Source: a virus (lineage: Duplodnaviria; Caudoviricetes). Taken from it: a DNA stretch of 64,000 bases. The stretch lies in the IMG/VR virus record IMGVR_UViG_2061766007_002263. One strand, given 5' to 3'. The position numbers and the translations under genes are program-made. The notes beneath the pieces are model-generated. The model saw only the letters and a program-made list of their open reading frames with translations. It was not told where the DNA came from and ran no database searches. This document shows, piece after piece, positions 5,432-35,932 of the stretch (position 1 is the first letter of the stretch; each line of letters starts with the position of its first letter).

Positions 5432-5581
5432 AGCGTTTAAGCATAAAACCCTAAGAATCACGGGTTTCCGAGCCCCTACTAAATTGTCCGACCCTTTTTA
5501 ATTAGTTAATGAGACTATAGAAGAAGACACAAAAAAGGCCAAGGAAAAATATCCTTGACCTTAGAAAAAAAAATCCTAATT

Positions 5582-6124
5582 TTATACCGTTTTTTCTTTC
5601 TTTTCTTTCAAAGGGGGCGTTACGTCCACCAGCTCGCCTTTAACGTTGCGCTTAAAAATCCTCTGGTTGCTGCTGCCCCGTAATTTAAGGGTAATATCCC
5701 TGAGCTCCTGCACGAACCTTCCCTCGACAAGATAATCCACTTTGCTAAGCGCAAGGTTTATGTCCTCGTCACCGGCATCACGAAGCTCCTCTATAGTATA
5801 CCCGGACCATAAATAAATCCTTATAGAAGGACATTTCTCCTTTATACGGTTTATAATGTATGCGACACCTTTACGATTCCAAGGTGCCATCGGCTCACCT
5901 CCAAGTATAGAAAAGCATCTCTCCATACCGTTCCTATGTATCGCACGAAGTATGCGTGTAGTAAGTCCGTCCAAGTCTGTGCATTCCGTACCGGTCTCTT
6001 TGTCCCAATACTGCGCATTCTGACATCCCGGACATTTAAAATTACATCCCGCCGTCCATAAGGACACTGCAAAACCGTCCACTGAATCTACTATGTCGTT
6101 TGTTTTTAATGCGACCAAATACAT
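5582..6124 (-). CDS. nrdG: anaerobic ribonucleotide reductase activating enzyme (radical SAM)
   Basis: GCNFKCPGCQN (CxxxCxxC), LGGEP, WSGY, LRGSSNQRI. Confidence 0.95.
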   Translation of the reverse strand: MYLVALKTNDIVDSVDGFAVSLWTAGCNFKCPGCQNAQYWDKETGTECTDLDGLTTRILRAIHRNGMERCFSILGGEPMAPWNRKGVAYIINRIKEKCPSIRIYLWSGYTIEELRDAGDEDINLALSKVDYLVEGRFVQELRDITLKLRGSSNQRIFKRNVKGELVDVTPPLKEKKEKTV

Positions 6125-6269
6125 TTTTCAAAAACCTCATTTTTAAGTTTCAATTGCTTCCGTTCCTCAGAATACTTCTGATTCTTTCCCTCGTCAAATA
6201 AGCCCTAAATTAGCTGCGCCTCAAAATTCCCAAACCCTATAGAAACATAAATCTGCAATCTATTATATA

Positions 6270-7451
6270 TTACGCTCTTTTTCTAAACCCGGCAAGATAA
6301 CCTTTGCCATAAGTTATGTTTATATAATCAAGATACAATTTTATATCATTCTTTCGAATAAACCTTACGCCGTTTTTAAGCCCGCACTGACGTTTCGCCT
6401 CAAACATACCGTCTTTTGAAGGGTCATAAGGATTCCGCATCGTACCGTTCTCATTAAAGAACTGGTCGCCTTTTATTTCTATAAGCTCACCGTTCAGCCG
6501 GAAATCCGGAAAATAATAATGCCTCTCACCGTCGTACTCATATTCTAACCTCACCGGCTCACGTTCTATTATCATGTCATGGTCAACCGCATAAATCCAT
6601 ACCGCAAGCTCCCATTTGCTGTCGAACCGCATACCGTTATAATCATACCTCGCATATGCCCTTCTCCTAAGTTCAACAGATTGCGACGGGTTCTCAACAC
6701 CATATCTTTCCACACAAGTTCTGCTTGACTTCTCCTTAAAATCATCCGTAAGCCAGTAATGCTTACCATAGATGCCTTCAAAAATCTCCGACTGCTTCTT
6801 CAGAGCCCTGCATTTTATCGGCTCATAAAGCATCGGATGCTCAACGCCGTATCTTTCCATACATGTTTCTTTGTTACGCTCAGGATTGTTAAAATTCTCG
6901 TCCCCATACCGCTCCAGTTTAGTCCGTTTTATTTTTGAAACTATGTTCTCAAGGTGTTCACCATATCTCGCGCGTTTTGTATCTATGACTTTCACGACAA
7001 GCTCCTCAGATTGCAAAGTGGTCGGAGCCCCGTACCTTTCATTCATTGTCTGACGGGCTTTCTCGGAATTGCTGTAATTCTCGTCGCCATATTTCTCCAG
7101 CTTGGTTTTCTTCGCTTTCACCATAAGCTCCTTGGACTTAAACGCATTGTCCACACCAAACTTACGGGTCATCGTGTCTTTAGCTTTGGTCTGTATGTAT
7201 TCAAGATATTTGTCAAACGAGCCATACTTTTTGTCTATTGACTCGTGTCTCTTTCTGTTTGATTCCAGTTTCTGCTCGCTTGTCCTTTTGGATTTGCCGT
7301 CCTTTATATTGCATTCGGCACAATACAACTGATGCTTGGTAGATTTTCTGAATTCCTTTTCCGTCAATTTTCCACATCCTTGACAATAAAAAGACACACG
7401 TGACGGAAATTTCAAAATTTCATCATAAGATTCTATAAACATATGTATCAA
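6270..7451 (-). CDS. free-standing putative homing endonuclease: Zn ribbon + (E/K)(R/K)YG repeats + PD-(D/E)XK domain
   Basis: CQGC/CAEC; about nine repeats such as EKYGDENY, ERYGDENF, ERYGVEHP, ERYGVENP; C-terminal FDSKWE...YFPDF...IEIKG. Inserted between nrdD and nrdG; likely ATG start at 7442. Confidence 0.7.
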   Translation of the reverse strand: MIHMFIESYDEILKFPSRVSFYCQGCGKLTEKEFRKSTKHQLYCAECNIKDGKSKRTSEQKLESNRKRHESIDKKYGSFDKYLEYIQTKAKDTMTRKFGVDNAFKSKELMVKAKKTKLEKYGDENYSNSEKARQTMNERYGAPTTLQSEELVVKVIDTKRARYGEHLENIVSKIKRTKLERYGDENFNNPERNKETCMERYGVEHPMLYEPIKCRALKKQSEIFEGIYGKHYWLTDDFKEKSSRTCVERYGVENPSQSVELRRRAYARYDYNGMRFDSKWELAVWIYAVDHDMIIEREPVRLEYEYDGERHYYFPDFRLNGELIEIKGDQFFNENGTMRNPYDPSKDGMFEAKRQCGLKNGVRFIRKNDIKLYLDYINITYGKGYLAGFRKRA

Positions 7452-7523
7452 TTAGAAGCTTAAAATAGAAAACGGCGAACAACACCGTTTTTCATGGCTG
7501 CTCACCGTTTTCATTAAATCTCA

Positions 7524-8075
7524 TCACTCCGGATTGTTATTCCAATCCACCAAAGAACTTGAATGTTTGTATCTGTGATTTACTTCGTCCACCTTTCCTT
7601 CATTGAAAGCGTCGAGGTAGGAACCAGTAAGATAACCGGTAACACGACGCAGACGCTGTATCACACGATGTCCTGGGACGTCATGCGCACCGCATACAGG
7701 GCATTCGTTGTCGATGTTTCCTTGATAACCACATTCAAGGCATGTGTCCGCTGGACAGTTTATTGCGAAATATGGAATATCTTTCTCCATCGCATAGTCT
7801 ACAATTTGCTCCAATGCCTTAAGATTGTTCTGCGTTCTATCATCAAGCTCGACATACGTAATACATCCTGCATTCGAATATCCGGTAAGCTGACTCTCAA
7901 TGTCAATCTTTTCAAACGGGTCTATTTTCGTCCAGACCGGAACATGCATGGAGTTTGTGAAAAACTGCCTGTAATCTTTCTTGTCCGAACCTTCAATATC
8001 CGAATATGTAACGTCCTTTATCTCACCGTATTTCGCACGGAACTTTTTCATCGCTGTATAACAAAGACTTTCAGC
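7524..8075 (-). CDS. nrdD: class III RNR large subunit, C-terminal gene, exon 3 (glycyl-radical domain)
   Basis: After splicing reads (YTP)AESLCYTAMKKF...; FTNSMH, CLECG/CPVCG Zn site, RRVTGYL glycyl loop. Confidence 0.92.
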   Translation of the reverse strand, partial: AESLCYTAMKKFRAKYGEIKDVTYSDIEGSDKKDYRQFFTNSMHVPVWTKIDPFEKIDIESQLTGYSNAGCITYVELDDRTQNNLKALEQIVDYAMEKDIPYFAINCPADTCLECGYQGNIDNECPVCGAHDVPGHRVIQRLRRVTGYLTGSYLDAFNEGKVDEVNHRYKHSSSLVDWNNNPE

Positions 8076-8371
8076 CGTTAAACCTAAAAACTTTCGTTAA
8101 TAGCCAGACTATATTTTCATCTTTTAATTCTTTTACCAAATTAAAAGCGCCTCTCATTTCGCTAAGATTATTAGCTACTCTACTCATTTATTCATTTAAG
8201 TATTTCACTTAAACTATACTTTCGATAGTCGTTAGAGTCACCCAAAAAGCTTTGGGCTTCCTACGGGGTTAGCTTGCTCTTGTTTAGCCTTTCTTACCAG
8301 ATTATTACTCTTCGCCCGTTTAGAGAGGGATTTTCATTTGTTGTCACCAACAAAGCACCCACTTAAAATCT
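8076..8371 (-). ncRNA. group I intron (296 nt, no ORF) in nrdD
   Basis: 5' exon ends in T (ACACCT) pairing with intron GGGTG (U-G at splice site); terminal G; core elements AAACGGGCGAA, AACCCCGTAGGAAG, CTAACGACTA, AAAATATAGTC; removal restores conserved YYTP|AESLC in frame. Confidence 0.9.
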
Positions 8372-8932
8372 AGGTGTATAATAAACTCCAAAATTAAGTT
8401 TATATTCTTCTTTGAACTCCGCGCATCTTTTTTTGAAAAGACCCTCAATCTTCTTGGCGACTTCCATACCTTTCTCGGTTGTCTGGTCACATCCTACAAG
8501 AAGCTGCAATGTCTCCGCCAAGCCAAGCTGACCTATTACGAGTGTACCGTGCTTGAGCGCGGAACGGATTCCTTCCTCTTCCCTATAACCATACATAGTA
8601 CCGTTTTCATACATGAACTTCGCCGAGTTCTTGTTCTGTGCCGCTATCCAGTTGTATCTTTCTAGCAGACCGTCCTTACAATCATGTATGGCTTTGTCAA
8701 GTATATCCATAAAACAGTCCACAAATAAATCCGGATTGTTCTTGGCTTTTTTCCTGGCTTCCATAGCCAAAGTAGGAAGAATTATCGTAGCCGGAGCGAG
8801 GTTTCCCCGTCCGTCTTTCTGCTGTCCTGTAGCAAGAAAATTATATTCCGGAATCTTGCCGTCAATCACGCTGTTGACAGCTTTAACCCACTCGTCATAC
8901 CAGTTTACATCAAAACCATTGGCTGTTCTACA
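8372..8932 (-). CDS. nrdD: class III RNR large subunit, C-terminal gene, exon 2
   Basis: CRTANGFD..., KDGRGN, LKHGTLVIGQLGLAE, NFGVYYTP. Confidence 0.92.
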
Positions 8933-9190
8933 CATATTTATCTTATGTCACCATAAGCACTGACTATATCTTCTACTTTTCAGTAGTCTTCCGCTTCGAA
9001 CTGGCGCTTATCTCCAGCCCTACTCCGCTACATTCATCACGGATAGTCGATACAGGTTCTTGGTTTCCCAAGCTTCCCACGGTCTCATCTTGCAAATCTT
9101 ACAAGACCTAACCGTTAGCAGACTCTTTTTCAGAATCCACACCCCTTAAGCAGGGTTCAAAAGATTTTAGATGAGCTGTAGTTTACACTT
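8933..9190 (-). ncRNA. group I intron (258 nt, no ORF) in nrdD
   Basis: 5' exon ATGGGT pairs with intron GCTCAT (U-G at splice site); terminal G; core elements TGCTAACGGT, GACCGTGGGAAG, GTATCGACTA, AAGATATAGTC; removal restores STMG|CRT in frame. Confidence 0.92.
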
Positions 9191-9799
9191 ACCCATCGTT
9201 GAAAAGATTGCGGCCGGCGCATTCTTTTCAGGAACAATTTTTAGCTTCTTTGCGTCCTCTACAAGCTCCAAGCCCAAACGGTCTGACAAGCCCTTGTTGT
9301 TTTTAAGCATTCCTATAAGGCTCGACATTTTTTCGTCGCTCAATTCCCCCAAGAAATCTTCCTTAAGAGCATAGGATTTACTGTCGTCATTTCCTGACCA
9401 ATCACAATTCGCATAGTTCGGATAAAGACGCTTTGAGGTGGATTTCAATGCCAGCTTATAAAGGTCATAATTCTTGCTGCCCTTGTCATTCACACCTTTC
9501 ATTTTCTGAAAGATGCCACAAGGGAAAATAGAAGTCCTATGAAGCTTTCCAACGCCATCAATAGAAACATTCAAAATAGCTTTCGTTACCATACGCCCTT
9601 CCGGAAGCGTACAAGTTCCGTAATTAATAGATGAAAAAGGAAGCTGGTTACCCGACCTGCTTTGCAAGCTATTGAGGTTATGATAAAGGCCTTCCGTAGC
9701 TTGGTATACTTCTTTTTCCAACATAGCTAGAGCGTACTGATACGCTTTCTCATGCGCTTTATAACGCTTATCTTTAATAGATACTTCTTCTATCCCCAT
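9191..9799 (-). CDS. nrdD: class III RNR large subunit, C-terminal gene, exon 1 (spliced product about 573 aa)
   Basis: HNLNSLQSRSGNQLPFSSINYG, TSIFPCGIF, RLYPNYAN, STMG; own AGAGGA RBS and ATG. Confidence 0.9.
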
Positions 9800-9815
9800 A
9801 GTATTTTCCTCTTGT

Positions 9816-10682
9816 TTATTCTCCTTTTATGTCTTTTATGAAGCTTTCTATTTCTTCGTCAGACAAGCCTTCCACGTATTTAAGTCCGTCCTTAAAATGC
9901 TTAAGAAATGATTTTCTTACATAAGGAACCATACTCCAGTCGATGTGCGTCGCCGAAACGCCCCCGAACTGCTGCAATGACTGAAGCTGAAACAATACCG
10001 CTACGAGCTGCATGGCTGTATTGACTGAACCGGCAGGACGGATATCAACTTGTCTTGTGTTGAATCCTTTGGACAATAAATCATCTATCGGAACCGAGAG
10101 ACAGTTATGACATCCGATTACATACGAATCCAGGTCGTGTATATAGATTCTGTTGTCGATATGATTCTTGGCGAATTTCGGGCTTATGTAATAATCCAAT
10201 GCCATCTGCTTCAGAAGCTCGCTGTCTGCCTCACCTTTACGACCTCCGAAAGAGTTCTCGTCAAGATTGGCATTCTGGTTCTGAACATCAGACGCATCAA
10301 GCTTTGTCTTGATACGTTTCATTATGTCAAGACGCTTGAACCGTTCCTTAGCCCGCTCATTGCGATAAAGGATAAAAGCTTTGGCAACGTCATAGCAGTT
10401 TTTGTTCTGAAGACCTTTCTCAACAAGGTCCTGAATCTCCTCGACGTTTACCTGGAAAGCTTCTCGTTCATCCTCTGGTTTTTTAAGCTGTTCCTTTTCG
10501 AAAGACTCCTTGTTCTTCTCAAGGGTTTTCGTTACGAACTCCAGTACTTTTTGAATCTGCTCGTCGGTGATTCGGTGTTCCAGACTCACCGCGTTGTTGG
10601 CGGCACTGATAGCGTTTATAATGTTTTTTTCCTTAAAATCTACACGCTTGCCGTCCCTTTTTACAACTTTTGTGTTTTCCAT
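9816..10682 (-). CDS. nrdD: class III RNR large subunit, N-terminal gene (ATP cone + first part of barrel)
   Basis: VVKRDG ATP cone, NQNANLDE, IYIHDLD, HNC, QSLQQFGGV; ends with TAA at 9816. Confidence 0.92.
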   Translation of the reverse strand: MENTKVVKRDGKRVDFKEKNIINAISAANNAVSLEHRITDEQIQKVLEFVTKTLEKNKESFEKEQLKKPEDEREAFQVNVEEIQDLVEKGLQNKNCYDVAKAFILYRNERAKERFKRLDIMKRIKTKLDASDVQNQNANLDENSFGGRKGEADSELLKQMALDYYISPKFAKNHIDNRIYIHDLDSYVIGCHNCLSVPIDDLLSKGFNTRQVDIRPAGSVNTAMQLVAVLFQLQSLQQFGGVSATHIDWSMVPYVRKSFLKHFKDGLKYVEGLSDEEIESFIKDIKGE

Positions 10683-10727
10683 TGTGTCTTCTAGTATAGC
10701 CTCCTTTAAAACAGATATAGTTAGTAG

Positions 10728-10774
10728 ACACCATACATAAGGCTCTTTGTTATCATAGCCACTAGATGTAGTGT
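10728..10774. promoter_or_regulatory. tandem NrdR-box-like operators upstream of nrdD
   Basis: CCACTAGATGTAGTGT (10759-10774) fits the NrdR consensus acaCwAtATaTwGtgt; a degenerate ACACCATACATAAGGC (10728-10743) starts 31 bp away. Confidence 0.65.
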
Positions 10775-10831
10775 TTTTGTATATCCAAGATATTTAGAGG
10801 TGGCATTAAATTGTCACCCCTTGATTATTTT

Positions 10832-13024
10832 CTATTCGTTAGTCCAAAACTTTCCCTTATGCACATAGAAAGTTCTCAAGCTCGGCGCGAATGAATTAAT
10901 AATGTCGCGTACCATCGGTTTATGGCTTATTATGAAAAGCTGGTCAAACAAATCATTCGCAAGTATCGCCTTGAACATGAGCTCAGAATTCTCGTCTGTT
11001 CCGGCTTGGTCTATCTCATCCATGAAAGCGAACCTCAAGTTATATGCGCGGCATAGCGCAACCTTGAACGCGATTGAAAGAATCGCTTTCTCGAATCCTG
11101 ATGCCATCTTAGCATTAAGCAGATTTTCCTTGGTATGTATGCGTCCGTTATTCTTGTCAGTAGTATAGAAAAACTCAACGCCCCGCTTGTTCTGAAAAAG
11201 CTTGACCTCCATCTGCGGGAACACGACTTGTATAAAGCTGTTCATCTCATGCTCAAGCATCTGACATGTCTTGAGAATAAGCCATGCCGGGAATGTCTTG
11301 TCCAAAAGAACAATTGCATCGTCATACGTCGCTTTCTGACGGCGGTATGTCTCGACCGAAGCTTTGGACTCCTCTATCTTCCTTGTCATGTCTTCTATCG
11401 ATTTACGGATGTTCTCGTTGTTCTGGAGAATAACATTATTCTGCGCAACTTCGGCATTATAATCAGAAATCTTCTGCTGCACGTCCCGAAGCTTTGACTG
11501 ATACTCCGCGTATTTGTCAGTAACCTCACCAAAGCTGTTGATTTTTAAGTCACATTCGCTTATCTCAGACTCTATTCCGACAAGACGCTCTTTTTGCCCT
11601 GCAATCTGTTCCTTAATGTTGGAAATATCAGACGCATTTGAGCTGTACTGGTTTATCTGCTCATCCAGACGCTCTTTCGAAGCTAGATTGGACGTAATCT
11701 GATTATCGACGTTCTGAATCCGATATTCCAATGTAGAAATGTCCTTTTTAGTATTGGATATCTCTATCTCTTTATTCCGTAACTTCTCACGCATTGCCTT
11801 TACTTCGGCATCAGCGAATGACGCTTCGGATTGCCTCTGGTTCTTTATGCTCTCAATTTCATCTTTGACTTTTATGGCAGTATTCAATGCGTCGTTATAC
11901 TTTGACTGGTCTGCCCTGTCGAAAGCATGTCCACATTCAGGACATGTTCCCAGCTTTATCATGTCCATATGTTTCTGCGCATGTTGCACATCCGCAATTT
12001 TACCGGCAAGCTGAACATTAAGCTCATTAAGCTCCGAGCTCTTTTTAAGGTATTCGTCATGCTTTGCCGTAATCTCGGCTGAAATTGAGTCTTTTTCCTC
12101 AATTTCCATAGAAAGCTCTTCATTAAGGTCTTTTATGTTGATGACATAGTTTTTTTTCTCTTCGGTCAAAGTATTATTTAACGCAACGTATTCATTGGAT
12201 TTCTGTACCAATGTATCAATCATGCCTTTGTTAGATTCTATGAGCTCTATGTCATGCTCCAATTTGGTAATCTGTTGCTTTACATTGTACATGTCTTTTT
12301 GAAGGTCGGATTTTCTAGACAAAACTGTGTCTTTCTCTTTTATGAGCACAGCTGTCTTGGTAAGCTCATTATTTATAGCCTCCACGGAATCATTCAGTTC
12401 CCGGATTTCTTCTTCCTTGAATGACAAGGGCTTGACCTCACGGATTTCTTTCTTACGTTCGTCAATGGATATTGTATTGAAATTTATCTGTGCCGTTTGA
12501 TAATCGATGCTTTCCTTGATTCCGGCCAAATCTTCCTTGAGCTTTCCGATTTTCTCCGTAAAATCAAACTGGAACAATTTCTGAAGGAACTGCTCGCGTT
12601 CACTGGGCTTAAGCTTTGTAATGTCGCCCTCATTCTGCATGGACATTATTATATCCGCATAATATGCGATATCAAACGAATCCAACAAATCCGTAACTTG
12701 TGAATTAACATACGTTTTCCCGCCATATTCTGCGGTACGTCCAAGTCCGGATGTCTTATCATTCAGTGTAATAGTTATCTTAAGCGGTCCGCCTTTTATT
12801 TCAGCCTCAAGGGTTACGGAGCAATTGTCCTTGCCCAACATGATAAACTCCTGATATCTGTCAGAACGTTTATCTTCCAAAAGACATAGTGTTACCGCCT
12901 GTAATACCGTGGACTTTCCTTGTCCATTGCTTCCGACTATAAGGTTCACGCCGTCATCAAAATTGAGCACGGCATGTTCTACACACATAAAGTTATTGAG
13001 AATCAGCTTTTTTAATTTCAACAT
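10832..13024 (-). CDS. SbcC/Rad50 (T4 gp46-like) recombination ATPase
   Basis: Walker A GSNGQGKS, coiled coil with CPEC zinc hook, ASGFE signature, FAFMDE Walker B, ISH. Confidence 0.9.
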   Translation of the reverse strand: MLKLKKLILNNFMCVEHAVLNFDDGVNLIVGSNGQGKSTVLQAVTLCLLEDKRSDRYQEFIMLGKDNCSVTLEAEIKGGPLKITITLNDKTSGLGRTAEYGGKTYVNSQVTDLLDSFDIAYYADIIMSMQNEGDITKLKPSEREQFLQKLFQFDFTEKIGKLKEDLAGIKESIDYQTAQINFNTISIDERKKEIREVKPLSFKEEEIRELNDSVEAINNELTKTAVLIKEKDTVLSRKSDLQKDMYNVKQQITKLEHDIELIESNKGMIDTLVQKSNEYVALNNTLTEEKKNYVINIKDLNEELSMEIEEKDSISAEITAKHDEYLKKSSELNELNVQLAGKIADVQHAQKHMDMIKLGTCPECGHAFDRADQSKYNDALNTAIKVKDEIESIKNQRQSEASFADAEVKAMREKLRNKEIEISNTKKDISTLEYRIQNVDNQITSNLASKERLDEQINQYSSNASDISNIKEQIAGQKERLVGIESEISECDLKINSFGEVTDKYAEYQSKLRDVQQKISDYNAEVAQNNVILQNNENIRKSIEDMTRKIEESKASVETYRRQKATYDDAIVLLDKTFPAWLILKTCQMLEHEMNSFIQVVFPQMEVKLFQNKRGVEFFYTTDKNNGRIHTKENLLNAKMASGFEKAILSIAFKVALCRAYNLRFAFMDEIDQAGTDENSELMFKAILANDLFDQLFIISHKPMVRDIINSFAPSLRTFYVHKGKFWTNE

Positions 13025-16344: not shown

Positions 16345-16424
16345 AATTAAACAAAATCTCCTTATATAAAAGAAGCTGTTTAATTAGTTGAGAAAAATTG
16401 ATATGTCCGAGAAATCATTATGAA

Positions 16425-16863: not shown

Positions 16864-17436
16864 ATGAAATGCAAAGACTACTTGTTCAAAATGCATCATG
16901 GACTTCACATCACTTACGACGATGACGACCTCATAAAAGAAATTTCATCCGAAGGAGGAGGACTGCCTTTCCGTGTCCGCGCCGACAACAGATATACCGT
17001 TACCGACGAGGAATATAAAGCCTTCGAAAAAAATGCCGGGGTCATCATGAACAACGGTCTTCCATTTCCAAACGCCAACGGAACAAGCGGTCCGCAAGGT
17101 CATCGCAATACTTGGGACGGATGCCAGTTTGACAGCGTTTGGGAATATGCGTTCTACAGATACCACAAGGAAGTTGCCGGCAACGTAATCACACGCAACG
17201 AAACAGAATGGATTCCATATTTCGACGAAACCGGCAAACAGAGAAAATTCTACTTCGACTTTCTCGTGAACGCCGTTCCTTATGAAGTAAAAGGATTTTT
17301 CCGTCCGTCCGACATGGCGAAAATGCAGTCAACGTCTGGTCAGGTTACATTTGTATCGAAGCCAGATATACTTCCTATAATGAAAGAACTCGACAAACAA
17401 ATACCGGGATGGCGCAGCGACTGCATTTTCAACTGA
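16864..17436 (+). CDS. TnsA-like PD-(D/E)XK endonuclease
   Basis: FDSVWE...IPYFD..GKQRKFYFDF...YEVKG. Confidence 0.7.
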   Translation: MKCKDYLFKMHHGLHITYDDDDLIKEISSEGGGLPFRVRADNRYTVTDEEYKAFEKNAGVIMNNGLPFPNANGTSGPQGHRNTWDGCQFDSVWEYAFYRYHKEVAGNVITRNETEWIPYFDETGKQRKFYFDFLVNAVPYEVKGFFRPSDMAKMQSTSGQVTFVSKPDILPIMKELDKQIPGWRSDCIFN

Positions 17437-17447
17437 CAGTCACATAG

Positions 17448-18335
17448 TTATTCCTTCAAATGATATGTTACATACCGTTCCTGAACATTTCCAAGCTCGC
17501 GCGATGCCTTGCATCCTTTATATCCGTCTTTATTAGGATTACCACCAAGATGCTCGCACCAGTTGCATATAAAAGACGGACATCCCAAGCTGTCCAAATC
17601 CTCGTGCTCCCAATCGTGCGCTTTTATTTCCTGAATGGTCACAAGGTAGTCATTTATGCATTTCTGGAGCACGGACTCGTCGTATTTGATTTCCTTTACG
17701 GACGCAAGCATTTTGTCATGGTCGTCAACGGCTATGTTCTGCTCCGACAAAGGGAAGAACAAGAAGAGCTTTATATTCTCAGCCGTTTTCTTCAAATCCC
17801 AGCCATGCTCAAGTCCTTTCAGATATGAATATAACAGGAGCTGTTCCTTATACTTTGATATGGACGGAGATTTGCCGGACTTGTAATCATATACCTCAAC
17901 CTTTTCGCCATTATCAAGGCAGACATCAAGAGCCCCGATAAAATGCTCACCCCCAAGGTCTCCTGATACCCAGCCTTCCTGAGCAACTTTATATCCATTT
18001 TTTTCCTTGCTCGCGATGAACTCGTCCCAGAAAAGAAAAAACCTCTCTATTCCGGATTTCTCGTCGTATTTATCAAGGTCAATGTTATGCTCCACGGCTT
18101 TTTCGGCAAGCCTCTTGAACACGTCCTCACGGTTTTCGCCGGTAAAATATTTCTCCACGGTTTCGTGAAATACCGTACCTTTTCTTGCAAGCTCGTCGTC
18201 GGCCGGCTTTGAGCACCGCCACTTCTGTACATACGTATAGAAATATTTAAGGGGACACTGTCTGTAAGTCGATATACGGCTCGCCGACCAGTTCGGCTTG
18301 TTTGACGAACGTACTTGTGAATTATATTGTGGCAT
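17448..18335 (-). CDS. RecB/AddB/Cas4-like PD-(D/E)XK exonuclease
   Basis: WSASRISTYRQCP, GTVFH, GALD, YDYKSG, QLLLY, C..C...C C-terminal Fe-S-type cysteines. Confidence 0.85.
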   Translation of the reverse strand: MPQYNSQVRSSNKPNWSASRISTYRQCPLKYFYTYVQKWRCSKPADDELARKGTVFHETVEKYFTGENREDVFKRLAEKAVEHNIDLDKYDEKSGIERFFLFWDEFIASKEKNGYKVAQEGWVSGDLGGEHFIGALDVCLDNGEKVEVYDYKSGKSPSISKYKEQLLLYSYLKGLEHGWDLKKTAENIKLFLFFPLSEQNIAVDDHDKMLASVKEIKYDESVLQKCINDYLVTIQEIKAHDWEHEDLDSLGCPSFICNWCEHLGGNPNKDGYKGCKASRELGNVQERYVTYHLKE

Positions 18336-18338
18336 TGA

Positions 18339-18680
18339 TTAAAGGTCTCCATGAATCTTGTTTACACGCGGACTTATAGGAGTGCTCTCTATTTCCTCGT
18401 CAGTGATGACCACGCCGATTTCCTCATACTTTCTGCACAAAAGCTTCAAAGGATTATCTTCCGTGTCCCTCAGCAAATATTCATCACCATGTTTCGGAAA
18501 CCGTGCGTCCGAAACTGAACCACAATCAAGGCAGCTTACTACAAACCGCTCTTCTTTCGGAGCAAGCGTAGAAATAACAAGCTGCCCCCCGCATTTACAT
18601 TCACCAAGAAATTTTACACTGTCAAGCAGTTTACCACTGGTTTCATGTTTTTTTAATTTTCTAATTGTTTTCTTTTTCAT
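18339..18680 (-). CDS. small zinc-ribbon protein
   Basis: CKCGG and CLDCG. Confidence 0.65.
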   Translation of the reverse strand: MKKKTIRKLKKHETSGKLLDSVKFLGECKCGGQLVISTLAPKEERFVVSCLDCGSVSDARFPKHGDEYLLRDTEDNPLKLLCRKYEEIGVVITDEEIESTPISPRVNKIHGDL

Positions 18681-18807
18681 AAATGAATATTAATCCATAT
18701 CCACATTTCCATATGGTATGTGATAATACGTATCAGGACATACTTTTCCTGTAGTTTTATTTTTAGAGGATGTTTTCAATGTAACTTGTATTATTTCAAA
18801 GTGATTT

Positions 18808-20505
18808 TCATGCTTTCAACCGGATTTTTTCAGTAAAAAGTCTCATAAAAGGACTCAAAAGTTTTTTTCTGAAAGCAAAATTATGTTTATTTGTCCCATA
18901 TATATTATAATAGATAGGAGAGAGGAGGAAACTAGCAGATTTGATTTGTACATTTGATTTTTCTTTTTTACAGATTTTCTTTATTTCATTTGTATAATCT
19001 TTTGAATTTTCTAATTCCAGTTTTTCTATTTCTTGTGATTTCATCACATATTTGTTTCCGAATTTTTTATTTCCTTTATTAAATCTTGCAATACTTTCGG
19101 CATTGTCTATGCTCATTTGAGATGCATAAAGCATCGTGTGTTCTATTTCTTTTTCGGACATGTTACGGTATCTTGATACAGTAGTCCTTGACATTCCCAG
19201 CTTTTTTGCCGCTTCACGGCATGTCAGGTTTTCAGGCAGCAGAGATAGACGGAGCATATTGGAATACTTGCATGCTTTTTTATAAAGCATTCCTTTTCTT
19301 CTCTGCTCGTCCGTATATCTTTTTTGAGTGGATTTTTTGTATTTTGCTAAGGACCATTTATATACATTTTTACAAACCGCATCCAGCTCGGAAATAGTCT
19401 TTTTGTCTTTTCCAGGTAGAAGCGAATCCGCATATGCCTCTATGACATTCAAGGCATTCCTGGCTTCCCCATAGAGAGGTGCCTTGTCCGAATGTTTCCT
19501 CATGTATTCCCATATCCATTCCCTGAGGCATTTCATCTCATAATAATTGCGGGAGCTTGCCGCAGGATGTATATTGCAGGTAGTCTTGTTGGTAACGTCT
19601 ACTATTACATTCTCCAGCAGATTCAGGTTTATCTCGTCCTCTATCTCCTTGGTTCCGGGCTTCGGGAAAAAAGGCTTCAAAACTTTATGTAATGTGTCAA
19701 AACTTTTTTCTAAAGAAGATGTCTTACGGAAATAGATTTTCGAGGTTTTTATCTCGGTATTTTTGTTATAGGGGTTTTTGCATTGCCAACCGGTGAAATG
19801 AGTGTCACCCGGCATTCCTTTATAGTAAGACCATAAATCAGCAAGGGCATGCCCCATGTTGAGGTATGTGCGGCATCCGTTCTCGTTATATCTCGCATTA
19901 TACCTGACCGAATCAGAGGGATGAAAAAACCATCCGGCTTGTATATTCCCGCTTTTGTGGTTATAATAGATATAGCTCTGTTTGGGAAGCTTATACTTTT
20001 TTACGAATGCCCGGATGTCTTTCTCGGCTTCGTCGAAAGTACGATAACCGTATGGAGTTCCGTCCGATAACGGAGGAAAGTATTTGTTCGCGTCGAAATC
20101 AAGGACGAGCACTTCACGAAGATAATGTGTGCGTCCGGTGGATGTCTGTATGAAAAATGATAGTTCTTTGTCGTCGCCTACGGCTTTCCATGCGTCAGGA
20201 AGACTTTTATAATCGTCTTTCATTACCTCATATTTTATGGCTTTTTTGTCGCCTTTTTTATGATTCTTGTAATTTCTTTTATATGTTTCGGCATTCTCGT
20301 CGTAATATGGGATAAATGACTTGATTATGCCTGTCCCCTCGCGCGTCTTGAAGCGCATGCATATGCCTTTGTCCAAGGCGATGTCCATGGAGTTTCCGTG
20401 ATGCAGGAAAACTTTTTTGGGTTTTTGGCTCTGATTCGTTATGTTTTGTGCCGAAATCGGCGTTTTTTGTTGTGAATTGTTTATGTCTACTAAATATTCA
20501 GACAT
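18808..20505 (-). CDS. ColE2-type replicase/primase (AEP primase domain + PriCT + HTH); candidate replication initiator
   Basis: LVLDFD (DxD), NHKSGNIQ, GDTHFTGWQCKNPY (cf. ColE2-family D..Y.G..CKNP), SRNYY....REW (PriCT-1-like), LTCREAAKKLGMSRTTVSRY HTH. Confidence 0.72.
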   Translation of the reverse strand: MSEYLVDINNSQQKTPISAQNITNQSQKPKKVFLHHGNSMDIALDKGICMRFKTREGTGIIKSFIPYYDENAETYKRNYKNHKKGDKKAIKYEVMKDDYKSLPDAWKAVGDDKELSFFIQTSTGRTHYLREVLVLDFDANKYFPPLSDGTPYGYRTFDEAEKDIRAFVKKYKLPKQSYIYYNHKSGNIQAGWFFHPSDSVRYNARYNENGCRTYLNMGHALADLWSYYKGMPGDTHFTGWQCKNPYNKNTEIKTSKIYFRKTSSLEKSFDTLHKVLKPFFPKPGTKEIEDEINLNLLENVIVDVTNKTTCNIHPAASSRNYYEMKCLREWIWEYMRKHSDKAPLYGEARNALNVIEAYADSLLPGKDKKTISELDAVCKNVYKWSLAKYKKSTQKRYTDEQRRKGMLYKKACKYSNMLRLSLLPENLTCREAAKKLGMSRTTVSRYRNMSEKEIEHTMLYASQMSIDNAESIARFNKGNKKFGNKYVMKSQEIEKLELENSKDYTNEIKKICKKEKSNVQIKSASFLLSPIYYNIYGTNKHNFAFRKKLLSPFMRLFTEKIRLKA

Positions 20506-20540
20506 TGCAAAATATTCCTATCTGTGTTTTGTGATGTCCA

Positions 20541-20570
20541 GAAGCCGTTTGTTTTGCGTCAAACGGCTTC
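20541..20570. repeat. perfect 11-bp inverted repeat in the rep leader
   Basis: GAAGCCGTTTG-N8-CAAACGGCTTC; CCGTTTGTTTT is also directly repeated at 20545 and 20586. Confidence 0.85.
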
Positions 20571-20894
20571 GCTTACCATTCAAAACCGTTTGTTTTACAA
20601 ACTTGAAATATAATTTATTTACTTTGCTTCCAGCAATGTATCTTGTCTTTTTTAGAGTTCCAATACAATTTCAGCACTATCTTGTATAATGTATAGTATC
20701 ATGCATTAATGTATATTAAATTAAAAAAACAATACATTAATTAGTGGTGTCTCGATAAAAAACACATATGAAAATTTCATGCTTTTTAGGTTTTTTCTGA
20801 AATGTATAATATAAGAAAGAAATTATATAAAACGGAGAAAATAAAAAAAGTCGCGGGTATCTGAAAAAAATACTCGAATATTTTTTAGCTATGC

Positions 20895-22025
20895 ATGAAA
20901 AAATATGATTATCTGAAAATACTCTCTGGTTTCAACGAGCAGGAATATTCCATTTTCTATCAGCTTTCCACGAATGAGGCACAGGTGGCGGAGTCTATAT
21001 ACGACGCTATGTGTATTGCGGTGAAAGAATGTTCCGGCATGTTCCTTAAAACTAAGAATGAGTTCATACAATGGCTTACGTTCTGTTCTCCGGAGAACGA
21101 ATGCTTGTCGTATTTTGATACGAAACTCATAGGACAGATATACAGGAACAAAGAGTGGGCGGATGACTATTACGGGGACATCTCGAACACAGAAGGACTT
21201 ACGACTTATCTGATTTCGTCATGGCGCAACAAGACGAAAACGCTCAAAAATAACCTGAACTATTTGCAGATGATTTATCTGGAATACATACGTTTTGCGA
21301 ACACTGAAAAAGGACAGGATTTTATTTATGGAAAATCCATGGATTCCTTGGTTCAATACGACGACATAAATGAGGACGCTCTTTCATATGAGGACAAGCC
21401 TTTCTGGGAGTCTGAGCTGTACCGTGAGCAGCAGCTCCTGAAGTTCAAGAAAAACGTGCTTCTGAAATGCAGCAAGAACGCGCTTCAGAATGTCGCGCTC
21501 CGGGCTATATGGGAGCAGACTTTCAGCTCCGGGAAGAAGTTCAACATAAAGGAAGCCGAGAATAAAGTATGGGAAGTTACCGGAAAGGACTGTATCTCGC
21601 ATACCACATTGTACAAGGAAATACGAAAATTAAGGGTATTGATGTTCAAAAAAATCTACGAATATCTGGACTCTGATTTTGAGTATTTTGCCGATATTCC
21701 GTTCTGTCTTGATGGTAAGGTAACTACGTTCAAGAAAGCGATTAAGGACTGGCTCCTTGAAGCAAAAATAGACAAAGTTTATAATGATACATGTGATAGA
21801 AAAGCGGATTTTGACGCATACGTTACGAAAGTGGCGACTGACTGGGCGGTTAAGAACGGTCTTGTATATTCGCTTTGTTCTGATTGCAAGAATGTACTGG
21901 TCCGGGTAAAAGGCGACTCTTATGGACGGACACATTCAAACTGGAAGACTTATTTTTATAAAGGAGGGGGTTACAAGGATTTTTATAATGGCCTGAAAGG
22001 CTCTTATAAAGATTTTGAGCGTTGA
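20895..22025 (+). CDS. hypothetical protein, possibly sigma-factor-like transcription regulator
   Basis: 376-aa ORF; GLTTYLISSWRN (region 2.4-like) and FNIKEA...ISHTTLYKEIRKLR (HTH-like); weak. Confidence 0.45.
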   Translation: MKKYDYLKILSGFNEQEYSIFYQLSTNEAQVAESIYDAMCIAVKECSGMFLKTKNEFIQWLTFCSPENECLSYFDTKLIGQIYRNKEWADDYYGDISNTEGLTTYLISSWRNKTKTLKNNLNYLQMIYLEYIRFANTEKGQDFIYGKSMDSLVQYDDINEDALSYEDKPFWESELYREQQLLKFKKNVLLKCSKNALQNVALRAIWEQTFSSGKKFNIKEAENKVWEVTGKDCISHTTLYKEIRKLRVLMFKKIYEYLDSDFEYFADIPFCLDGKVTTFKKAIKDWLLEAKIDKVYNDTCDRKADFDAYVTKVATDWAVKNGLVYSLCSDCKNVLVRVKGDSYGRTHSNWKTYFYKGGGYKDFYNGLKGSYKDFER

Positions 22026-22052: not shown

Positions 22053-23954
22053 ATGGTTAAAATTACTGCGAACAAGTCTCGCGGAGTCCTGGAGCTCAGG
22101 GTATACGGCGACAAATTCATGGACACCGTGGAGACATTGAGACTCAACGGGGCAAAATATCATGCTCCAACAAAATCATGGAATGTAAATATACTCAGTC
22201 TGGACGACATAATCACGGAGCTTAATTTCGAGGGTGAGGTGGTGGAGGTGTCCGCGCTTACCAAAAAGGAAGTAGAGGAATATCGTGAGTCCTTAAAAGA
22301 GCTTGAGATTTGTAAGGAACGGCGTGTTCTCCGTCTTGACCTTCTTAATTTCCCGCCGCTCGTAGGCAAGCATCCGTTCGAGAACTATCAGTCGGACGAT
22401 TTGGGAAAAGCCCTGAGAAGAAACAGATATCTTTTCAACTGGAGCATGGGCTTGGGAAAGTCATGGGCTCTTGCCGCGCTTATAGAAAATCTGAGGTACT
22501 ATAAGCTTATAAATAAATGCCTTATTTTTTCGACGGGCGTAGGTGTATATAATCTTAAGAGCGAGTTGTGTAAGTTCGGCAAGAACATGAATCCGGACGA
22601 TATCTTTGTTCTGGATTCGATTATGATACTTGAAGACCGTGACCTTTTCAATTCTGAAAAATATCCCCAGAGCATTTTCATAATGACATATGATACTTTT
22701 AAAGGTATCAACAATTATTATTATGATATGGCTAAAGGCACAAAAAAAGACCCGCACCCTTCAACAAAAACTGACTACAAAAAATCATATGTTCCTATAA
22801 AGGAATGGCTGAACGGCTATCACGGCGCGTTGTTCCTTGACGAGTGCCACAGCCTTGCCAATCCGAAATCAAGGCGTTCCGAGATAATCGAGATGAACTT
22901 GATGTACTTCAAGTACAGATATGAGTTTACCGGTACTCTGGCCGACAAGTATGAGAAGCTTTATGAGCCCCTGAAAGTTCTTGACCGTGCTTTGGTTGAC
23001 GGATTGAAATACAATGAATGGCTCAAGGAATACAATGAAATAGGAAACAAGTACAGCGAGTACGCCGCGAATCCCGATAAATGGGACATGAAGAAGATAG
23101 GTGAGCTTAACTGCCGTCTGCTTGACAACTATGCTTCCAAGAGGGAGATGAAAGACTGCCTTGACCTTCCTCTGGACTTTGAGGTTCCTACGATGTACAT
23201 AGACATGTCGCCATTGCACAGACGGATTTATGAGGGCTTCGTTAAAGTAGAGCTTGAGCTCGCAAAGGAGAGGAGACTTTCCGGGGAGTCTACTGTCAAA
23301 GATTCTATAATGAACATGTTCGGTGTTTTCCAGCTCGCATGTGAGAATGTTGAGTGCCTTAAGGACACGCCTTCTTTCGAAAAGTTCCCGGATGAGCTCA
23401 AGTCCATGATTCTCTCGTATGACTGGTTCAATGACAACAGTAAGGTCAGGGCTATAAAAGAGGTTCTTCAGGAACGTGTTGACGAATGCGGCGAGAGAGG
23501 GATAGTCTGGTACTATCATCCAAAAACCAAGGATTGTCTGGTTAAGCTGCTCAAGAAATATAACCCTACCGTAATAGAGGCAGGAATGGGGCCTGAGAAG
23601 ATGTCGGCTACGCTGGACGAGTTCAAGTCTGACGAAAAGCATAAGATAATCATAGCGTCGATAAACATCATGAACACCTCGGTAACGCTTACGCAGTGCA
23701 AATGGAATCTTTATGTTGAGAGAACTTTCAATTACACGGTCTACTCTCAGTCACGCGGAAGAATCTATAGGCCCGGACAGAAGGATTTGTGCCGCACGTA
23801 TATGATTTGTTTCAACCGGTCGATAGACAACCTTCAGCTCCAGAACTTGCAGGAGAAAGGTGCGGTGTTGGACAGCCTTCTGAATAAGAACATCATAAGC
23901 CAGAATGTATGGAAGATGATTTTCAGCGCGACCGGCAGGGAAAAGTGGTATTAG
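22053..23954 (+). CDS. SNF2-like superfamily 2 helicase
   Basis: SMGLGKS motif I, LFLDECH motif II, TGT motif III, QSRGRIYRPGQ motif VI; HARP-like N-terminus. Confidence 0.9.
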   Translation: MVKITANKSRGVLELRVYGDKFMDTVETLRLNGAKYHAPTKSWNVNILSLDDIITELNFEGEVVEVSALTKKEVEEYRESLKELEICKERRVLRLDLLNFPPLVGKHPFENYQSDDLGKALRRNRYLFNWSMGLGKSWALAALIENLRYYKLINKCLIFSTGVGVYNLKSELCKFGKNMNPDDIFVLDSIMILEDRDLFNSEKYPQSIFIMTYDTFKGINNYYYDMAKGTKKDPHPSTKTDYKKSYVPIKEWLNGYHGALFLDECHSLANPKSRRSEIIEMNLMYFKYRYEFTGTLADKYEKLYEPLKVLDRALVDGLKYNEWLKEYNEIGNKYSEYAANPDKWDMKKIGELNCRLLDNYASKREMKDCLDLPLDFEVPTMYIDMSPLHRRIYEGFVKVELELAKERRLSGESTVKDSIMNMFGVFQLACENVECLKDTPSFEKFPDELKSMILSYDWFNDNSKVRAIKEVLQERVDECGERGIVWYYHPKTKDCLVKLLKKYNPTVIEAGMGPEKMSATLDEFKSDEKHKIIIASINIMNTSVTLTQCKWNLYVERTFNYTVYSQSRGRIYRPGQKDLCRTYMICFNRSIDNLQLQNLQEKGAVLDSLLNKNIISQNVWKMIFSATGREKWY

Positions 23955-33984: not shown

Positions 33985-34272
33985 CTACTCTTTGTCCTCT
34001 GTTTCGAGCGTTCCGATAATGATTTCTTGTACCGCTCCTTTAGCTACAGCCTCATTTACTTCGTTTTTTTCTGTAACCGCGTCTTTTGGAAGGTCACCTG
34101 CTTTTACAAGCTCTTTTATGAACGTTCCAAGATACTTTGTAGCTTGAGCGGGCTCGTCGAATACAATCGGCGAGTATATCGGATAAGCAAGTGTTTCGCT
34201 GTGGAATCCTACGCGAATCTGCTTATTATAGATAACTATTGGCTGGAACAATCTTCCGTCACTAATCATCAA
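33985..34272 (-). CDS. hypothetical protein
   Basis: 95-aa ORF overlapping the groEL stop; AAGGAG RBS. Confidence 0.65.
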   Translation of the reverse strand: MMISDGRLFQPIVIYNKQIRVGFHSETLAYPIYSPIVFDEPAQATKYLGTFIKELVKAGDLPKDAVTEKNEVNEAVAKGAVQEIIIGTLETEDKE

Positions 34273-35932
34273 AGATACTCCTTTCTTGGTCTATGACAGC
34301 ATCATTTGCTTTTACGTGGCAATTCATTGCGTCGCTGGTTATTACGCAGTCTGTCGTAACGAATGTACCGGCAAGTGACGTTGAATATTGTATAGCAAGT
34401 ATCTCGACTTTAACCGGGTCGATAATACCGGCATTATACATGTCGTCACAAAGTTCCTCGGTTTTCGCGTTATAACCGAAATTCGGATTCTTGGATTCTT
34501 TTATTTTCTCCGACCAGTATCCTGGGTCTTTTCCGGTGGACTCGATTATAAGCCTTGCGGGGCTTTCCATTACTTTCAAAAACTTCTGATATCCTACTTC
34601 CTGTGTCGGATTATCGAGAGGAACATGATTGTCTTTAGCCTCTTTTGTAGCATGCAGAAGCCCCGCACCACCACCTGCAAGTATACCGTTGTTTATTGCG
34701 GTATATACAGAGTTCACGGCATCCTCATAGCGGTCTTTCTTCTCTTTTACTTCGGCATCAGTAAAGCCTCCGACCCAGATTACCGCAACGCCGCCTGAAA
34801 GCGAAGCTATACGTTCATTAAGATATCTTATCTCATATTCAGACATTGCCTCTTCGTCGGAACCGTCGGTTCCTCTTGTAATCTTGTCTTTTATGCTTTT
34901 TATATGATTATCGATATCCTCTTGATTTCCTTTTCCTCCGAGAATGTTCATCTTTTTCGGTGTAGCCGTGAAGTTTTCTGACGAGCCAAAATATGACGCA
35001 TTGAAAGTATCTATGGATTTTCCAAGCTTGCCTTCTACGATTGTCGCGCCGGTTACTTTGGCGATGTCCACGAGATTGTCGTCCATAGCTTCCTTTGACG
35101 CTCCGGCAGGACCGACCATTACGGCGCTGAATCTGTTACTACTTACATTATCGATAAACACAGAAATAAAATCGTCTGAGTATGACGGAGCTACGATTAC
35201 CAAGTCGCCTTTTGCCAATGAAAAAATAGGCTGGATGTCTTTAAGTGATTCCAGTTTTTTTCCATATACAAAATATGACGGATTGGTATATCTAACGGTA
35301 TTATTATCGGAGTTTACGCTGCAGGAAGAAAGGTATCCACGATTTACCTCGAATCCGGATGAGTATGTGACGCTGGTTTCGCCTTTACGGTTTTTTGCCG
35401 CGTCAACACATACAACACCGTCTTCGCCTACTTGTACGAAAGCGTCTTTTATTATGTTGCCTATTTCCGAATCATTGTTGGCGGATATAGTGGCTACTTT
35501 GAGTATGTCTTCCTCAGACTCTATTGATTTTTTGTTTTTCTCAAGGATTTCTATAACGTCTTTCGCGGCTTTTTGGAATCCACGTTTGATATCAACGGAA
35601 TCAAAATCACGTTCGATTAGCTCGTTTCCCGCTTCGCATAGCTCTACTGAAAGAAGCGTAGTAGTGGTGGAGCCGTCGCCACATTCACCGTTCACTTTTC
35701 TAACACTGTCCTTAAGATAGCTTACTCCAAGGTTTTTATAGGGGTCAGTAAAATCAATGAAGTCAAGGACTGAAACTCCGTCCTTGGTTACTACCGGATG
35801 TATGGTTCCATTGTCGAGCATAACCGTATGTCCCTTCGGACCTAGTGTGCTCGTTACGGCTTTCTTTGCCTCAATCATTCCCGCCAGTACTTTGGAACGG
35901 GCATTGCTTTTGAATGTTATTATTTTACCCAT
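34262..35932 (-). CDS. groEL: phage chaperonin (GroEL-like)
   Basis: TLGPKG, VTKDGVSV, GDGSTT, ATISANND, KEKKDRYEDA, GGGAGL, GIIDPVKV. Confidence 0.93.
   Translation of the reverse strand: MGKIITFKSNARSKVLAGMIEAKKAVTSTLGPKGHTVMLDNGTIHPVVTKDGVSVLDFIDFTDPYKNLGVSYLKDSVRKVNGECGDGSTTTTLLSVELCEAGNELIERDFDSVDIKRGFQKAAKDVIEILEKNKKSIESEEDILKVATISANNDSEIGNIIKDAFVQVGEDGVVCVDAAKNRKGETSVTYSSGFEVNRGYLSSCSVNSDNNTVRYTNPSYFVYGKKLESLKDIQPIFSLAKGDLVIVAPSYSDDFISVFIDNVSSNRFSAVMVGPAGASKEAMDDNLVDIAKVTGATIVEGKLGKSIDTFNASYFGSSENFTATPKKMNILGGKGNQEDIDNHIKSIKDKITRGTDGSDEEAMSEYEIRYLNERIASLSGGVAVIWVGGFTDAEVKEKKDRYEDAVNSVYTAINNGILAGGGAGLLHATKEAKDNHVPLDNPTQEVGYQKFLKVMESPARLIIESTGKDPGYWSEKIKESKNPNFGYNAKTEELCDDMYNAGIIDPVKVEILAIQYSTSLAGTFVTTDCVITSDAMNCHVKANDAVIDQERSIFDD

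Follow-up and report, generated by a model that had tools for sequence, protein, structure and literature searches.

The window analysed in this work is a 64,000-nt stretch of DNA from a virus of the class Caudoviricetes (Duplodnaviria; IMG/VR record IMGVR_UViG_2061766007_002263). It carries, on the minus strand, a gene designated here rep, whose product, Rep, is a divergent relative of the initiator-primases of ColE2-type plasmids, and the strand composition of the window switches close to the 3′ end of this gene. A preliminary description, made from the sequence alone, had interpreted rep as a ColE2-like initiator gene with a bidirectional origin at its 3′ end. After the analyses reported below this is still the best reading of the data, and it is considered reasonably probable that the ColE2-type replicon cassette acts as the bidirectional origin of a large phage. 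Direct support comes from the homology and fold of Rep, from the position of the composition switch in the window and in related genomes, and from a conserved, strand-specific RNA structure opposite the start of rep. The coordinates of all features are detailed in Table 1.

The translated open reading frame (ORF) showed the motifs previously listed for it, in the same order: LDFD (residues 135–138), NHKSGNIQ (182–189), GDTHFTGWQCKNPY (233–246), SRNYY (318–322), REW (328–330) and a helix-turn-helix (HTH; 425–449). Direct searches of Rep against Pfam, PHROGs and NCBIfam gave HTH-type matches only, as did, weakly, a full-length Rep profile against the sequences of the PDB. Nine close homologs were found, with 31–49% identity, and they are metagenomic without exception. 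The family profile built from Rep and these nine sequences (10 in total) was searched against 1.8 billion representatives and yielded 92 relatives, 79 of which were aligned and scanned; PF03090 was matched in 39 of them (best E-value 9.5e-42) and PriCT_1 in 4. Two relatives link Rep to PF03090, whose gathering cut-off is 26. Relative P0017 (E 5e-47 to the family profile) scored 28.7 against PF03090 over the aligned region, and its pairwise alignment with Rep extends over 392 residues (E 4e-24); P0033 (E 2.5e-24 to the family profile) scored 29.3. Since both pass the cut-off and Rep has no direct match, Rep joins the ColE2-Rep-like superfamily via intermediates, not directly. By this homology through intermediates and by its predicted fold, Rep is established as a divergent representative, encoded by a phage, of the ColE2-Rep-like initiator-primases.

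No match was obtained by tblastn of Rep (P0001) and P0017 against GenBank phages, or of P0017 against PLSDB plasmids. The distant Rep P0017 is encoded on contig L012 (region 5525–11515), about 0.9 kb from divergently oriented genes for T4-type topoisomerase II subunits and about 9 kb from a thymidine kinase gene, which points to a second large-phage lineage carrying a ColE2-type Rep.

The full-length AlphaFold model of Rep was of middling confidence (predicted local distance difference test, pLDDT, 67). In an exhaustive structural comparison of this model with 48,161 chains, the top five were all archaeo-eukaryotic primases (AEPs): S-2L PrimPol (6zp9, Z 8.2), Prim-PolC (6sa0, 7.5), LigD (2fao, 7.2) and RepB′ (3h25, 7.0; 3h20, 6.9), with further AEPs lower in the ranking. 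The modelled N-terminus of Rep thus matches the AEP catalytic fold. Among the 79 aligned relatives, D136 and D138 of motif I (VLVLDFD) are kept in 77 and D234 of motif III in all 79. The column of the motif II histidine, position 187, holds His in 65 relatives and Asn in 8. The preliminary description had taken this histidine to be replaced by Gln; the residue is in fact Asn187, and Gln189, two positions further on, is conserved across the family and co-occurs with the histidine where that is present (H-x-Q). AEP families without a motif II histidine are known, among them that of the enzyme PolpTN2, which has been studied experimentally, and a basic residue may compensate for the loss (PMC5862659). 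Asn187 alone is no argument for an inactive enzyme.

For the C-terminal half, residues 296–472 were refolded with a 64-sequence alignment (pLDDT 89.7). The DNA-binding domain of ColE2-P9 Rep (3vw4) was the first of the 48,161 chains for this model (VIA-align Z 7.4, 74 aa, 3.3 Å) and its top Foldseek match (probability 0.96), in an alignment that covers the PriCT-1 and HTH regions. The A4 profile matched the same structure with an E-value of 3.8e-4, the sole match to the PriCT-1 part, as opposed to the HTH, among the best sequence-profile matches; this profile also matches HTH entries of the PDB. As the Z score of 3vw4 is poorly separated from those of unrelated helical proteins, the ColE2-P9 assignment rests on the agreement of the three methods. 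An AEP and PriCT structural match, which the preliminary description had anticipated, was therefore found. Its expected matches to PF03090 and PriCT_1 were obtained in part: the direct match failed, whereas PF03090 was reached via intermediates and ColE2-P9 Rep by Foldseek.

[quoted passage not shown] This possibility, which partly overlaps with the preferred reading, is considered unlikely. It draws on the histidine kept at motif II in 65 of the 79 relatives but replaced by Asn in this subfamily, and on the lack of any BLAST-level relative in GenBank phages or PLSDB plasmids to anchor the function. Against it, D136, D138, D234 and the K-N-P motif are kept, Asn187 is invariant in homologs down to 31% identity, AEPs without the histidine exist, as cited above, and the position of the gene and its synteny are maintained in every related contig.

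With respect to composition, the plus strand of the window has C>G and A>T to the left of the switch, and G>C and T>A to its right. This is the polarity of leading strands leaving an origin, the plus strand rightward and the minus strand leftward. The 60-mer counts given in the preliminary description were exact in four of five cases, the remaining one, at 23221, having 20 G and not 21. Raw skew is confounded with the coding strand, because gene orientation changes at 20506–20894; the cumulative GC skew of the 64-kb window, for which the minimum was established, is lowest at about 19.5–19.7 kb. Genes of either orientation were separated by position when the GC and TA skews of third codon positions (GC3 and TA3) were combined into one index. 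For minus-strand genes this index ranged from -0.41 to +0.06 to the left of 18.7 kb (n=12) and from +0.05 to +0.37 to the right of 20.6 kb (n=14), with barely any overlap (Mann–Whitney p=2.8e-5); rep, at +0.218, is of the right-hand type. Both plus-strand genes on the left were negative and all 12 on the right positive. At four-fold degenerate sites alone, the GC skew was too noisy per gene and the AT skew was clear.

The switch was located with a logistic change-point model on third codon positions, comprising a coding-strand term and a position step. The change point was placed at 19750 by GC3 alone and at 18500 by TA3 alone (likelihood ratio of about 93–97 each), and at 18900 by both jointly, with a loss in log-likelihood (ΔlnL) below 2 over 18500–19000. 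The site-level independence assumed by the model is optimistic, and a conservative interval is 17.5–20.0 kb. The flip near the 3′ end of rep is consequently independent of gene orientation, as had been claimed, and the strand-corrected switch at 18.5–19.0 kb (best 18900) agrees with the 18.7–19.2 kb predicted. The divergent gap upstream of rep was worse as a switch site by a ΔlnL of about 14 in the window.

The switch was followed across genomes with the syntenic loci of six related contigs, whose GC content is about 33%; together with the window these make seven loci, and their genes were grouped as upstream of rep (U), rep itself (R), downstream and co-oriented (D) or downstream and opposite (O). 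The pooled GC3 skews of the seven loci were -0.025 (U), -0.138 (R), +0.044 (D) and +0.197 (O). These values fit a switch at the 3′ end of rep, since R=-O and U=-D both hold as predicted from it. Coding-strand bias alone and a switch at the 5′ end of rep were rejected, because both predict R=D, which fails by about 5.7 site-level standard errors according to our arithmetic from the pooled counts. When the six relatives were analysed without the window, the joint change point fell 200 nt after the rep stop codon, with support from 0 to +400 nt, and the rep start was disfavoured as the switch site by a ΔlnL of more than 20. The location of the switch relative to the rep stop codon is thus repeated in related genomes, and the position of rep and its synteny are conserved in every related contig.

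An origin within the AT-rich divergent promoter gap at 20506–20894 would provide a different explanation, in which all genes are co-oriented with the fork and rep is merely odd in composition. The gap is poor in GC and coincides with the gene-orientation switch, the raw cumulative minimum falls between it and the 3′ end of rep, and GC3 alone prefers 19.5–20.0 kb. Nevertheless, this explanation is regarded as improbable: besides the poorer likelihoods of the gap in the window and of the rep start in the relatives, rep orthologs differ in GC3 from the co-oriented genes downstream by the 5.7 standard errors mentioned, and a conserved opposite-strand gene follows position, not strand. An explanation unrelated to replication, with rep sitting at a boundary between gene modules that differ in history, expression class or codon usage, is judged equally improbable. 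The left and right blocks do represent different functional modules, late genes give much of the contrast, and the corrected local skew is heterogeneous across 4-kb bins. A mere module boundary is, however, opposed by the flip of GC and TA skews at one point in the classical leading-strand sense, by the separation by position of plus- and minus-strand genes on both sides, and by the fact that, in relatives of about 33% GC with saturated synonymous sites, the flip stays with the stop codon of rep.

The 3′ end of rep has further features relevant to the preferred reading, an origin at or just beyond this end. The region 18700–19100 has 26.7% GC compared with about 41% for the window, in agreement with the AT-richness noted for it previously; of the short palindromes also noted, two imperfect ones (18716–18743 and 18894–18921) are present and may be no more than chance occurrences. 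An AT-rich trough (12–27% GC) lies 100–300 nt before the rep stop codon in eight of eight loci, and the spacer after rep forms part of it as well. It encodes a poorly conserved K/N/I-rich linker that precedes a conserved C-terminal YY(K/N)..GT motif. The start of the gene that follows rep is preceded, at a distance of about 10–20 nt, by a promoter-like TTAATAT box, both in the window and in three of the four relatives examined. Near the switch, the search for iterons and conserved motifs turned up only low-complexity AT repeats and k-mers attributable either to the codons for YYKRDGT, which are conserved, or to the TTAATAT box, the one conserved non-coding box there. A sigma-70 promoter scan gave fewer sites than shuffled sequences, GGATA-N15-TATAAT promoters were not enriched in the window, and a DnaA-box-like 9-mer at 18697–18705 is at chance level. 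On either side of rep, at 18646–18659 and 20718–20731, stand the arms of a perfect inverted repeat of 14 nt (TGTTTTTTTAATTT / AAATTAAAAAAACA); it is of low complexity and probably a chance match.

The 5′ end of rep carries a second conserved element, which is a new finding of this analysis. Upstream of rep in every related locus the arrangement GCGAARCC-stem-GGCTTCTRRACA occurs once per locus, and its stems covary. On the strand antisense to rep, a two-hairpin fold was obtained in nine loci (the window and L001, L002, L005, L008, L009, L010, L011 and L014), with z from -4.2 to -6.9. For the 26 pairs of this fold, 93.9% of cells are paired on the antisense strand as compared with 75.6% on the sense strand; G–U pairs on one strand are A–C mismatches on the other. 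The covariation score was 0.482, compared with 0.07–0.13 for slid controls, and none of 500 shuffles reached 0.482. Codons S2, L5 and V6 of rep are identical in seven loci and are the only Ser/Leu/Val columns in rep so constrained. An Rfam scan of 18200–21200 gave no family, and the element is absent from the distant PF03090-positive lineage L012. The pairing, covariation and codon data point to the antisense strand as the carrier of the functional, strand-specific conserved structure, which is proposed as a candidate countertranscript RNA. In ColE2-type replicons rep is controlled by a small antisense RNA directed against its 5′ untranslated region or leader (PMC5304414).

The box that precedes this candidate RNA reads ACTAAWTW on the antisense strand. 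Of 35 matches to motifs of this type in the window, 26 are intergenic or directly upstream of a co-oriented gene start, intergenic DNA representing 7% of the window. Throughout the window, the form RCTAA[ATG]YW, mostly ACTAAWTW, is found 11–50 nt upstream of many co-oriented gene starts, for example at 16388 (-), 16853 (+), 23964 (+), 25627 (+), 32134 (+), 36981 (-), 42701 (-), 44180 (-), 51593 (-), 53057 (-), 56415 (-) and 58807 (-). It probably constitutes a class of phage promoters.

Several observations weigh against an origin of this type and are gathered here. Rep itself, searched against Pfam at E≤1, matched neither PF03090 nor PriCT_1, and the AEP-defining sxH of motif II is absent, Asn187 being present in Rep and in all close homologs down to 31% identity. 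Pfam searches of the large ORFs of the window revealed no DNA polymerase or replicative helicase. The skew within rep is too noisy to put the switch inside or outside the gene; moreover, its position leans on a few discordant genes (rep, one opposite-strand gene family and the late genes at the far right), which leaves room for an effect of gene-specific composition. Taken individually, four of the six relatives were informative and two uninformative. A U-run follows hairpin 2 in all nine loci except the window. DnaA boxes were at chance level (16 matches vs 17.7 expected), and neither iterons nor a conserved origin sequence were found near the switch in the window and related loci. ColE2-type origins have been reported to be the smallest known and belong to replicons without iterons (PMC5304414), so the lack of iterons is compatible with such an origin and does not constitute positive support.

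Rep was compared with known systems, of which ColE2-P9/ColE3 Rep (class C theta; PF03090, 3vw4) is the closest. Both share the domain order AEP, PriCT-1 and HTH and retain the catalytic Asp residues as well as the K/R-N-P motif. No other entry matches the C-terminal half of the phage Rep better than 3vw4, by structure or by profile. The candidate origin of the phage would likewise be located at the 3′ end of rep or beyond it, and a structured element antisense to rep faces its 5′ leader. In agreement with the premise of the preliminary description, the origins of ColE2-related replicons are located inside the 3′ end of rep or directly follow it (PMC5304414). Unlike ColE2-type Rep, the phage protein is extended at its N-terminus and carries a tail at its C-terminus, lacks a direct PF03090 match and has Asn in place of the motif II histidine; it belongs to the genome of a phage, at least 100 kb long, and not to a small plasmid. 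ColE2 Rep makes a fixed 3-nt primer, and replication is Pol I-dependent and unidirectional (PMC4538821), in contrast to the two forks suggested in the phage by a V-shaped, two-sided skew. No ColE2-like origin sequence was identified near the phage rep.

RepA-PFP replicons of Pseudomonas plasmids, which are ColE2-related, have a separate upstream control module with stem-loops and a putative antisense RNA (PMC5304414). They resemble the phage locus in the structured element and candidate antisense RNA upstream of rep, and differ from it in being plasmid replicons with Pseudomonas-specific control modules and no BLAST-level similarity to the phage Rep. The AEP families RepE/RepS and PrimHYQ, including the primase of Bacillus phage IEBH, have a uniform AEP, PriCT-1 and HTH architecture, and motif II of PrimHYQ is variable, with His, Tyr or Gln (Kazlauskas et al. 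2018). The likeness noted to these proteins of mobile elements and some phages is one of architecture and motif II variability, and their elements are small and lack helicases. In phage lambda, ori-lambda is inside the O gene, in a poorly conserved AT-rich linker region with four iterons, and O is not a primase. This case is an analogy only, namely a candidate origin in the AT-rich linker-coding sequence of the initiator's own gene, here with no iterons found.

[quoted passage not shown] Forks would then leave both ways, unlike in ColE2, and would produce the excess of G over C and T over A on the plus strand rightward and on the minus strand leftward. Synthesis of Rep would probably be limited, in the manner of ColE2, by an antisense RNA of about 90 nt, expressed from the phage promoter-like box in the first codons of rep, presenting an anti-Shine-Dalgarno loop and ending at the leader hairpin terminator.

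Table 1. Features of the rep locus and its surroundings (positions in the window)
Feature	Coordinates	Strand	Characteristics
Spacer downstream of rep	18681..18807		26.8% GC; imperfect palindrome 18716-18743; TTAATAT promoter-like box before the next gene
Strand-composition switch, candidate origin	18500..19000		Joint GC3+TA3 change point
rep, initiator-primase gene	18808..20505	-	565-aa ORF; AEP, PriCT-1, HTH and AT-rich C-terminal tail
AT-rich trough in the rep 3′ end, possible unwinding region	18808..19100		25.9% GC
HTH, residues 425-449, presumed origin-recognition module	19159..19233	-	Pfam HTH_23 E 2.6e-4, other HTH families
PriCT-1-like helical domain, residues 314-396	19318..19566	-	A4 profile, domain model, Foldseek
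AEP primase domain, about residues 37-290	19636..20397	-	Motif I D136/D138; motif II S-G-N187-I-Q; motif III D234; K243-N244-P245
ACTAAATA box, candidate antisense-RNA promoter	20489..20496	+	Antisense to rep codons 4-6; antisense strand reads ACTAAWTW
Candidate antisense RNA opposite the rep start	20497..20600	+	Two conserved hairpins
Hairpin 1	20501-20538	+	Complement of AUG and Shine-Dalgarno (SD) sequence; loop is anti-SD, complementary to the purine-rich ribosome-binding region
Hairpin 2	20541-20570	+	Terminator-like stem
Divergent control region, rep vs opposite operon	20506..20894		28% GC
Sense ACTAATTA box	20738-20745	-	Conserved upstream of rep in relatives

As to genomic context, products of the window's genes include NrdG, a split NrdD, an SbcC-like ATPase, a NUDIX protein, a PD-(D/E)XK nuclease, a superfamily 2 (UvsW/SNF2-like) helicase, a Clp-type protease, a FEN-like exonuclease and a GroEL-like chaperonin, and many of its large proteins have no family match. 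Searches of Pfam, PDB sequences and the ESM Atlas identified none of the large neighbouring ORFs (886, 973 and 570 aa) as a polymerase or helicase. The anaerobic ribonucleotide reductase NrdD is distributed over four ORFs (288, 210, 190 and 175 aa; 7524–10682 and 6270–7451, both on the minus strand) beside a DUF7487 gene and near NrdG (5582–6124); in the relatives it is a single protein of 776–840 aa. The GroEL/Cpn60-like chaperonin (Pfam E 1.2e-57) is encoded at 34262–35932 on the minus strand. Downstream of rep, a single gene of the block runs on the opposite strand (16864–17436, plus strand; 190 aa, no family); its position and orientation are conserved in the related loci examined, and its composition follows locality, not its own strand. 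One of the related contigs is an IMG/VR entry, and a gene with a sheath domain is present in one relative. The Logan contig of this genome measures 104 kb and one relative is on a contig of 227 kb; the phage is accordingly large (at least 100 kb), and the jumbo size attributed to it previously is unproven.

What is new is that the switch has been placed, after strand correction, at the stop codon of rep and has been seen there again across genomes; the antisense-RNA candidate is likewise new. Origins of large uncultured phages have almost never been located, and here an interval of about 0.5 kb is accompanied by a named initiator and a candidate RNA. The strand-corrected, cross-genome change-point test is applicable to other metagenomic phages. 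More tentatively, a family of large phages (at least 100 kb) could have taken over a whole ColE2-type cassette as its chromosomal origin and made it fire bidirectionally. This cassette would be composed of a countertranscript RNA with an anti-Shine-Dalgarno loop, a Rep primase whose motif II has Asn, and an origin without iterons in the AT-rich 3′ end of rep. A phage promoter may drive the antisense RNA and so shut the initiator off in the course of infection. If the proposed origin is correct, a minimal plasmid replicon design, in which a single protein binds, melts and primes and is checked by an antisense RNA, would be seen to work for phage genomes as large as 100 kb or more, and an evolutionary link would exist between plasmid and phage replication modules.

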